Below are positions 4,393 through 4,841 of a DNA stretch of 9,032 nucleotides, piece by piece. Origin of the DNA: a virus (Duplodnaviria > Heunggongvirae > Uroviricota > Caudoviricetes). Location: the IMG/VR virus record IMGVR_UViG_2693429599_000008; one strand, given 5' to 3'. Position numbers and translations under genes: made by a program. The notes under the pieces are model-generated. The model was not told the DNA's origin, ran no database searches, and worked only from the letters and a program-made list of their open reading frames with translations. Each line of letters starts with the position of its first letter. Position 1 is the stretch's first letter.

Positions 4393-4647
4393 CTGATGTA
4401 TGTCTCCGTCACCGCCGACAGAAAATGAAAGTAAAGAAAAACAAAAAAACCACCAGTGTCACCCACTGACGGCCAACTCCGGGAGCCGTGATTATGGCAT
4501 TCAGGCTCTGCTAAAAATGCCAGATAACATTCCGGCCTCCCCTGATTCAGGTTATAAATGACACAATATCTTGACAACACCCGTCACTGTCTGTCAGAAA
4601 ATATACCGCCAGGCATAAGTATCATGTGAAATCCAACTATCCTTCTG

Positions 4648-4690
4648 AGCCAGCACCTCTCCACCGAAAGTCAGTGCTGGCTGTTTTTTT
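4648..4690 (+). terminator. Hairpin plus U-run (unit 1)
   Basis: 9-bp stem agccagcac (4648-4656) / gtgctggct (4674-4682), 17-nt loop, then gttttttt 4683-4690. No T-run in the minus orientation. Confidence 0.45.
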
Positions 4691-4797
4691 CCTTAATAAA
4701 GCATCTGTAACTGAAACAATCCGCATATTGATAATATATTGACAGGCATCATTGCTGTCTGTGAAAAATAAGTCTCTACAAACATATAAGGCCTTTT

Positions 4798-4841
4798 AGC
4801 CAGCGTCTTCTTTCAGGTCAGTCGCTGGCTCTTTTTTTATT
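4798..4841 (+). terminator. Hairpin plus U-run (unit 2), overlapping the 3' end of the 335-aa gene
   Basis: 8-bp stem agccagcg (4798-4805) / cgctggct (4823-4830), 17-nt loop, then ctttttttatt 4831-4841. Confidence 0.45.

Follow-up and report, generated by a model that had tools for sequence, protein, structure and literature searches.

We propose that two paralogous genes for small RNAs (sRNAs) that bind Hfq lie in tandem in the gap between a sialate esterase gene and a pinholin gene of this Escherichia coli prophage, both on the plus strand and head-on to the prophage late operon, an explanation that we consider the best available and to which we assign a probability of roughly 0.8. The window (that is, the whole 9,032-nucleotide stretch that was analysed, IMG/VR record IMGVR_UViG_2693429599_000008) constitutes the late region, with minus-strand sense, of a prophage that is lambdoid and Stx/434/H-19B-like. 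An earlier note, made from the letters alone, had described two diverged plus-strand units in the esterase–pinholin gap and had suggested that they specify two short RNAs of roughly 65–90 nt antisense to the late operon; every element that it listed was found in its place, and the RNAs themselves are supported by published experiments on near-identical loci, where plus-strand transcripts, their 3′ ends, Hfq dependence and the trans targets of PasA have been shown (PMC8550237). The units are thus already known, as PasA, EcOnc51 and EcOnc52. What is new here is modest: the tandem paralogue pair, which is absent from the 2026 survey of the Pas family, and the reading of PasC as an apparent fusion.

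Two related units in a degraded late region

Both units have the same layout on the plus strand. Unit 1 begins with TTGACA (4571–4576) and a CTGTCTGT block (4587–4594) that is followed by CAGAAAATA, and ends in a stem of 9 bp (AGCCAGCAC, 4648–4656; GTGCTGGCT, 4674–4682) with a 17-nt loop, one G and a run of seven T (4684–4690). In unit 2, TTGACA (4739–4744) and the CTGTCTGT block (4755–4762, then GAAAAATA) precede an 8-bp stem (AGCCAGCG, 4798–4805; CGCTGGCT, 4823–4830), likewise with a 17-nt loop, which is followed by one C and seven T (4832–4838). The promoter-like blocks lie 168 nt apart and the terminators 148–150 nt apart. Given that the TTGACA-N10-CTGTCTGT pattern occurs twice against an expectation of 0.00 in 200 shuffles, and that the alignment of unit 1 with unit 2 scores 11.7 standard deviations above dinucleotide shuffles, chance is excluded as the source of the two-unit pattern. 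The units are not collinear throughout: the body of unit 2 is about 20 nt shorter, and under strict gap costs an alternative register exists (GAAAATATACCGCCAGGCAT at 4597 against GATAATATATTGACAGGCAT at 4730), which was set aside; the register of the earlier note was kept, since the two units agree exactly in their TTGACA-N10-CTGTCTGT geometry. A LexA box within CTGTCTGT (CTGT-N8-ACAG) was also considered and rejected on reading the sequence, as the second half-site is missing in both units.

Repeat and folding analysis delimits an intrinsic terminator in each unit, at 4648–4690 (plus strand) for unit 1 and at 4798–4838 (plus strand) for unit 2, the latter ending one base short of the esterase stop codon (4840). 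The note had held that the hairpins are terminators on the plus strand only, and the T-runs indeed lie 3′ of the stems on that strand alone; the phage 434 record OL657226 annotates both as terminators on the strand that corresponds to the plus strand of the window. Each RNA ends in a canonical Hfq module (that is, a U-rich stretch, a GC-rich hairpin and U7). The unit 2 RNA folds far better than its shuffles (z = −3.73), and the full 85-nt unit 1 RNA no better than its own (z = −0.51), so that only the terminator of unit 1 is structured. Of the cells in 15 distinct hairpin variants, 96% form pairs, and three of the nine pairs are changed on both sides (C-G to U-A, A-U to G-C); because the stem is kept by such compensatory changes, the hairpin is under selection. 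As diversity is low and all copies are recent E. coli prophage DNA, this covariation amounts to only two or three events.

The promoter-like block of unit 1 (4571–4602, plus strand) consists of TTGACA and a spacer of 18 nt with TGT at its end (TG at 4592–4593), followed by a weak −10 element that may be CAGAAA (4595–4600) or else GAAAAT (4597–4602). The block of unit 2 (4739–4769, plus strand) repeats this arrangement, with an 18-nt spacer that again ends in TGT (TG at 4760–4761) and a −10-like element that is either GAAAAA (4763–4768) or AAAAAT (4764–4769). When the published 5′ end of PasA is placed on the window it falls at 4606, 6 nt past CAGAAA, which puts the TTGACA of unit 1 at −35 to −30 and the TG at about −14. 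By its layout, unit 1 has a predicted promoter of the extended −10 class, whose −35 element is perfect and whose −10 element is weak, and unit 2 is likewise predicted to be active from its layout and conservation. As unit 2 repeats the promoter layout of unit 1, its start is predicted near 4774 and its RNA at about 64 nt, and this start agrees with the edge of the EcOnc52 peak (see below).

A generic promoter scan called neither unit, and neither has a good consensus −10 element at 17-nt spacing, which is why both TTGACA promoters were missed; the corresponding terminator scan passed over unit 1 because of a loop longer than 8 nt and picked up no more of unit 2 than an inner sub-stem. Given these limits of −10 consensus and loop length, the silence of the scans is no evidence against function. 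The block of unit 1 is nearly invariant in 434, H-19B and prophages PP2 and PP5 of E2348/69, and the stretch 4539–4605 is better conserved than the RNA body. Among unit 2 copies that were gathered by a terminator-side pattern, and hence were unselected for the promoter, the promoter block is unchanged at four different upstream rearrangement junctions and lost in one, and a plasmid copy of unit 2 with 93% identity has nine changes, all outside the core promoter of 36 nt. Such retention is suggestive of a function for the block.

On one side of the units is the class II (phage 21-type) pinholin S gene (4186–4392, minus strand; Pfam PF04971, E = 1.9e-32), beyond which lies a phage lysozyme gene (2965–3498, minus strand). 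On the other is a SASA/NanS-p-type sialate esterase gene (4840–5847, minus strand), convergent with both units and truncated to its DUF6645 part, with 335 aa, whereas the full-length esterase of phage 434 and E2348/69 is an 1,851-nt coding sequence (~616 aa). The gap itself (4393–4839) holds no open reading frame (ORF) with a family match, and the 53-aa ORF at 4400–4561 (plus strand) has no match in PHROG; a 109-aa ORF with a GTG start (4251–4580, minus strand) overlaps the frame region of the holin. The late transcript also contains a terminator-like hairpin just upstream of the holin gene (4448–4474, minus strand), with 11 pairs followed by TTTTTGTTTT; the phage 434 record likewise annotates a terminator there, and the T-runs of both sRNA terminators find their complement in the A/T runs that flank the hairpin. 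A conserved phage gene of phrog_1853 (3616–3930, plus strand; E = 3.5e-47) lies further on, between the genes for lysozyme and holin, and is given in the RefSeq annotation of RM14723 as a 90-aa hypothetical protein. It lies on the strand of PasA, opposite to the lysis genes, and its transcript would cross the holin gene in antisense, heading to the PasA locus.

The prophage is degraded. A C-terminal fragment of the tail-tip protein J (1912–2550, minus strand; PF12421) almost adjoins the lysozyme gene, and a phrog_18077 gene (1105–1809, plus strand) and a full NleB/SseK-family type III effector gene (1–981, minus strand; E = 3e-181) lie beyond it. Upstream of the truncated esterase gene, a hok/sok locus and a gene for the epoxyqueuosine reductase QueH (6408–7094, minus strand) replace the usual DUF3927/TerB/Q block, and the window contains neither a Q gene nor pR′. 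The hok/sok-type toxin–antitoxin RNA locus is complete and lies just upstream of the esterase gene (6165–6340, minus strand; Rfam RF01794 sok, 120.5 bits, E = 9e-28); a 70-aa ORF (6015–6227, minus strand) overlaps its 3′ part. Sok matches are frequent near PasA (Zhu, Shabalina & Storz 2026, preprint). None of the complete E. coli genomes in the collection spans 80% or more of the window.

Unit 1 as a variant of PasA

In enteropathogenic E. coli (EPEC) E2348/69, prophage PP2 encodes PasA (pathogenicity-associated sRNA A, E2348CN_0003) between an esterase gene (E2348C_0688) and a holin gene, both of which have the opposite orientation (Pearl Mizrahi et al. 2021, PMC8550237). A Northern blot confirmed the RNA, which loses stability when Hfq is absent and takes 12th place in the number of its RIL-seq interactions. 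The transcript runs from 743499 to a major 3′ end at 743415 (85 nt) or a minor one at 743264 (236 nt) (PMC8550237 and its Table S6). Aligned to the window, these ends correspond to 4606, 4690 and about 4839, such that the published 3′ ends coincide with the two T-runs, the minor end falling just past the second. Plus-strand transcripts ending at the hairpins, the absence of which the earlier note had named as grounds for giving up its proposal, are therefore on record for both T-runs in E2348/69.

Judged by its sequence, unit 1 is a variant of PasA. A collinear alignment places the major, 85-nt form at 4606–4690 (plus strand), with 74 of 85 positions identical to the E2348/69 RNA, and the differences are confined to a diverged 5′ part (29 of the first 40 nt identical, against 45 of the last 45). 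The target of the PasA Northern probe, CTCTCCACCGAAAGTCAGTGCTGGC, is matched exactly at 4657–4681, and the published seed GCCAGCACCU lies at 4649–4658 (plus strand), overlapping the 5′ arm of the terminator stem (PMC8550237 Fig. S5), an overlap that is unusual (Zhu, Shabalina & Storz 2026). Unit 1 thus has the probe target, the site opposite an esterase and a class II holin gene, the terminator and the seed of PasA, and the synteny of the window (esterase, sRNA, class II holin) is that described for pasA and pasC. From the ends of Table S6, the read-through form, whose length is 236 nt in E2348/69, maps to 4606–4839 (plus strand) and would be about 234 nt long in the window. The promoter block, the 3′ 45 nt, the seed, the terminator and the read-through end are thus identical to those of PasA, whereas the first 40 nt of the RNA are diverged, the host prophage is degraded and its esterase truncated. 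Going by its description, unit 1 would fit the common variant ‘PasA-2’ of Zhu et al. (2026), and its expression in this degraded prophage is predicted from that in E2348/69.

On this basis we suggest the following course of events. Transcription of unit 1 would start at or near 4606, probably from the TTGACA promoter with its TG-extended weak −10 element (processing of a precursor has also been proposed as the source of the 5′ end), and would stop at the 4648–4690 terminator to give the 85-nt RNA; the first terminator being leaky, some transcripts would continue to 4798–4838 and yield the form of about 236 nt. The RNA would bind Hfq through its U-rich 3′ module and pair in trans, through the seed GCCAGCACCU, with mRNAs that carry sites resembling CUG(A/G)UGCUGG. 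PasA is known to pair in trans with many mRNAs, and its RIL-seq targets, as analysed with MEME, include the esterase genes E2348C_0688 and E2348C_1246, with the site CUG(A/G)UGCUGGA (PMC8550237). The window contains GGUGCUGG, complementary to the seed core CCAGCACC, at the 3′ end of the esterase mRNA (4863–4870, minus strand). The GGUGCUGG at this position also resembles the 3′ arm of the PasA terminator, and relatives have CCAGCACC or CCAGCATC at the site. A cis-antisense effect of the head-on units on the late transcript is possible.

Unit 2 and the source of its RNA

Unit 2, a diverged tandem copy of PasA, is already on record both as EcOnc52 and as the final part of the long PasA form. Its promoter layout is the same, its terminator is related and its 5′ body is shorter and different. 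EcOnc51 (prophage Sp12 of E. coli O157:H7 strain Sakai) and EcOnc52 (Sakai Sp4) are Hfq-CRAC peaks (Tree et al. 2014, PMC4104026, Table S2) and were listed among the enterohaemorrhagic E. coli (EHEC) peaks as homologues of PasA (PMC8550237 Table S6). Mapped approximately, EcOnc51 corresponds to about 4634–4710, over the hairpin of unit 1, and EcOnc52 to about 4773–4850, over unit 2 alone, with similar peak areas; both are peak calls only, each made in three datasets, and their coordinates pass the T-runs by 12–20 nt. The Sp12 intergenic region aligns base for base with window 4574–4854. In Sp4, unit 2 is present alone and is identical to window 4717–4848; an IS629 remnant replaces everything beyond position −22 from its TTGACA, and unit 1 is gone. 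In E2348/69, RIL-seq chimeras with escD end at 743267–743294 (about 4811–4838 in the window, that is, at the unit 2 terminator), and the RIL-seq entry ‘pasA.E2348C_0688.IGR’ behaves like an sRNA in that it is always the second RNA of its chimeras; the unit 2 signal was merged into PasA as the minor 236-nt form (PMC8550237). From the EcOnc52 peak in Sp4, where unit 1 is lacking, and the chimeras at the unit 2 terminator, it follows that RNA of unit 2 is bound by Hfq. As to its source, the 3′-end reads fit read-through from PasA equally well, and the IS629 end in Sp4 could drive transcription. Most likely, unit 2 also makes its own EcOnc52-type RNA of about 64 nt (4774–4838, plus strand, with a predicted 5′ end) from its own predicted promoter. 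The equivalent of the PasA seed GCCAGCACCU in unit 2 is altered to GCCAGCGUCU, for which reason a different set of targets is to be expected.

A simpler account would have only unit 1 at work, with unit 2 a decaying duplicate whose TTGACA block is silent and whose hairpin serves as a back-up terminator, halting PasA read-through short of the esterase gene, which it would otherwise enter in antisense. The publication of the unit 2 signal as the minor PasA form, the nature of the RIL-seq reads at unit 2 (3′-end reads), the weakness of its −10-like element and the single-unit PasC-type and A′-type loci (see below), which indicate that one unit is enough, are all in keeping with this. It does not, however, readily accommodate an Hfq-bound EcOnc52 of a size similar to that of EcOnc51 in a prophage without unit 1, the intact promoter block of unit 2 across at least four upstream junctions and in the 93%-identical plasmid copy, or the occurrence of unit 2 alone at about 100 plasmid places, and we regard it as unlikely. 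We are a little more doubtful still of a second account, which concerns the 5′ end of PasA: the RNA might be cut from a longer plus-strand transcript, begun upstream, for example at a conserved TATAAAT (4553–4559) or at the phrog_1853 gene, with the TTGACA/CTGTCTGT block acting as a processing or protein-binding site instead of a point of initiation. A Northern blot has been read as showing a PasA 5′ end cleaved from a longer transcript (Zhu et al. 2026), there is a real plus-strand gene upstream, and stronger conservation at 4539–4605 than in the RNA body would suit such a site; yet the −35 and TG elements stand at promoter distances from the mapped 5′ end, in a geometry that recurs in unit 2, and in Sp4, where unit 2 is Hfq-bound, the native sequence extends no more than 22 nt upstream of the TTGACA of that unit.

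A third account would have the hairpins stabilise or process the late mRNA (minus strand) at the junction of the esterase cistron with that of the holin, the features of the plus strand being incidental; this seems to us highly improbable. On the minus strand the same stems do fold at energies that match or better those of the plus strand (−22.6 and −16.0 kcal/mol), and covariation alone is blind to strand, but four U-G cells of the stem alignment would become C-A mismatches there, the T-runs are 3′ of the stems on the plus strand only, and plus-strand RNAs that end at both hairpins were detected experimentally in E2348/69 (PMC8550237).

Relatives, proposed recombination and significance

The comparison across related prophages that the earlier note had proposed recovered a 501-nt stretch, with 95–100% identity, in many E. 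coli genomes and phages (among the latter H-19B, 434, YYZ-2008 and many Stx1a phages). Each unit is present in about 12.5% of complete E. coli genomes: of 5,426 such genomes, 679 have unit 1 (at 2,191 places, including 5 plasmid ones) and 677 have unit 2 (at 2,301 places, including 100 plasmid ones). RefSeq has no annotation at either unit, and the Rfam 15 covariance search that had also been proposed placed no family over either one, whether at the gathering score or at E ≤ 10; within 4380–4900 the only matches at E ≤ 10 were two chance matches to snoRNAs (E = 1.2 and 4.1), and the only match at the gathering score in the whole window was sok (6165–6340). According to the published survey, PasA is restricted to Escherichia and Shigella.

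In a promoter-pattern scan of IMG/VR, on which all of the following architecture counts are based, tandem pairs spaced 166–168 nt apart are the commonest architecture (at least 72 loci), followed by single unit 1-type matches (45 loci) and unit 2 alone (7 loci); copies split or disrupted by insertion sequences (IS) were also found. At two loci (L025 and L047) the units are 1,429 nt apart instead of 168, apparently through an insertion in the spacer, and both remain intact. In further copies an IS end interrupts the terminator; these may represent the terminator-less ‘PasA-3’ of Zhu et al. On the 96-kb plasmid pCFSAN027346-1 (L128, 2470–2640), unit 2 lies alone among IS elements beside an 87-nt esterase remnant, with a U-G pair in its stem and an unchanged core promoter.

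PasC (E2348CN_0005, prophage PP5 of E2348/69) is a single unit, whereas the window has two. Its stem (AGCCAGCG/CGCTGGCT) is of the unit 2 type and abuts the esterase stop codon, and its promoter and 5′ body are of the unit 1 type; identity to unit 1 is 90% over the 5′ part, and identity to unit 2 is 97–98% over the 3′ part, which includes the shared esterase flank. The PasC probe target GTACATCTACCCGTTTTAGCCAGCG is absent from the window, and what unit 2 has in common with PasC is limited to the terminator part, one unit 2 variant in IMG/VR having the exact PasC loop. PasC therefore looks like a fusion of the 5′ part of unit 1 with the terminator of unit 2 and the equivalent of neither, a reading drawn from sequence comparison. 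In the A′-type, the unit 1 terminator, with a compensated stem (AGCCAGTAC/GTACTGGCT), is joined at its T-run directly to the esterase end. Both the PasC-type and the A′-type appear to have arisen through unequal recombination of unit 1 with unit 2; the reverse direction (that is, duplication of a single unit) may apply instead.

Tandem duplicated sRNA genes have precedents in PrrF1–PrrF2–PrrH of Pseudomonas aeruginosa and OmrA/OmrB of E. coli. The layout is alike, with adjacent paralogous sRNA genes that have their own promoter-like and terminator elements, and PrrH is a longer RNA formed by read-through of the first terminator, as is the 236-nt form of PasA; the sequences, however, are unrelated, the host, regulon and setting (here a prophage late region) differ, and the promoter of unit 2 is predicted. 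The anti-sRNAs AgvB and AsxR of Stx and lambdoid prophages (Rfam RF02702 and RF02703) are likewise short, Hfq-bound and convergent with moron genes of the late region. They nevertheless differ from the present units in sequence and in site, which is 3′ of the moron coding sequence and upstream of the esterase, and they sponge sRNAs whereas PasA pairs mainly with mRNAs. The class is marked by a common 3′ region of about 42 nt, and neither RF02702 nor RF02703 matched the window at the gathering score or 4380–4900 at E ≤ 10.

Combining these observations, we put forward, at somewhat less than even odds, a joint reading in which unit 2 would count as a distinct and as yet unnamed PasA/PasC family member that has a promoter of its own and a changed seed and that, in tandem with PasA, contributes to a PrrH-like read-through RNA, and in which unequal recombination between the two units would have produced PasC (unit 1 5′ part, unit 2 terminator) and the A′-type (unit 1 T-run, esterase end). 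PasA and PasC have been assigned a common origin, and pasA copies have been described as never closer than 22 kb and not tandem (Zhu, Shabalina & Storz 2026); the diverged paralogue 150 nt downstream apparently fell under the BLAST criteria of that study. If true, the joint tandem reading would explain the common origin of PasA and PasC and correct the statement that pasA copies are never in tandem.

In summary, the strand, 3′ ends and rough sizes of experimentally validated sRNAs were correctly predicted from raw sequence alone, which is of value for calibrating such predictions. [quoted passage not shown] That PasA usually occurs with a diverged paralogue about 150 nt downstream, together with the PasC fusion, would refine both the count of the Pas family and the origins proposed for its variants, and the tandem pair and the fusion would suggest that the family has a second seed specificity, GCCAGCGUCU.
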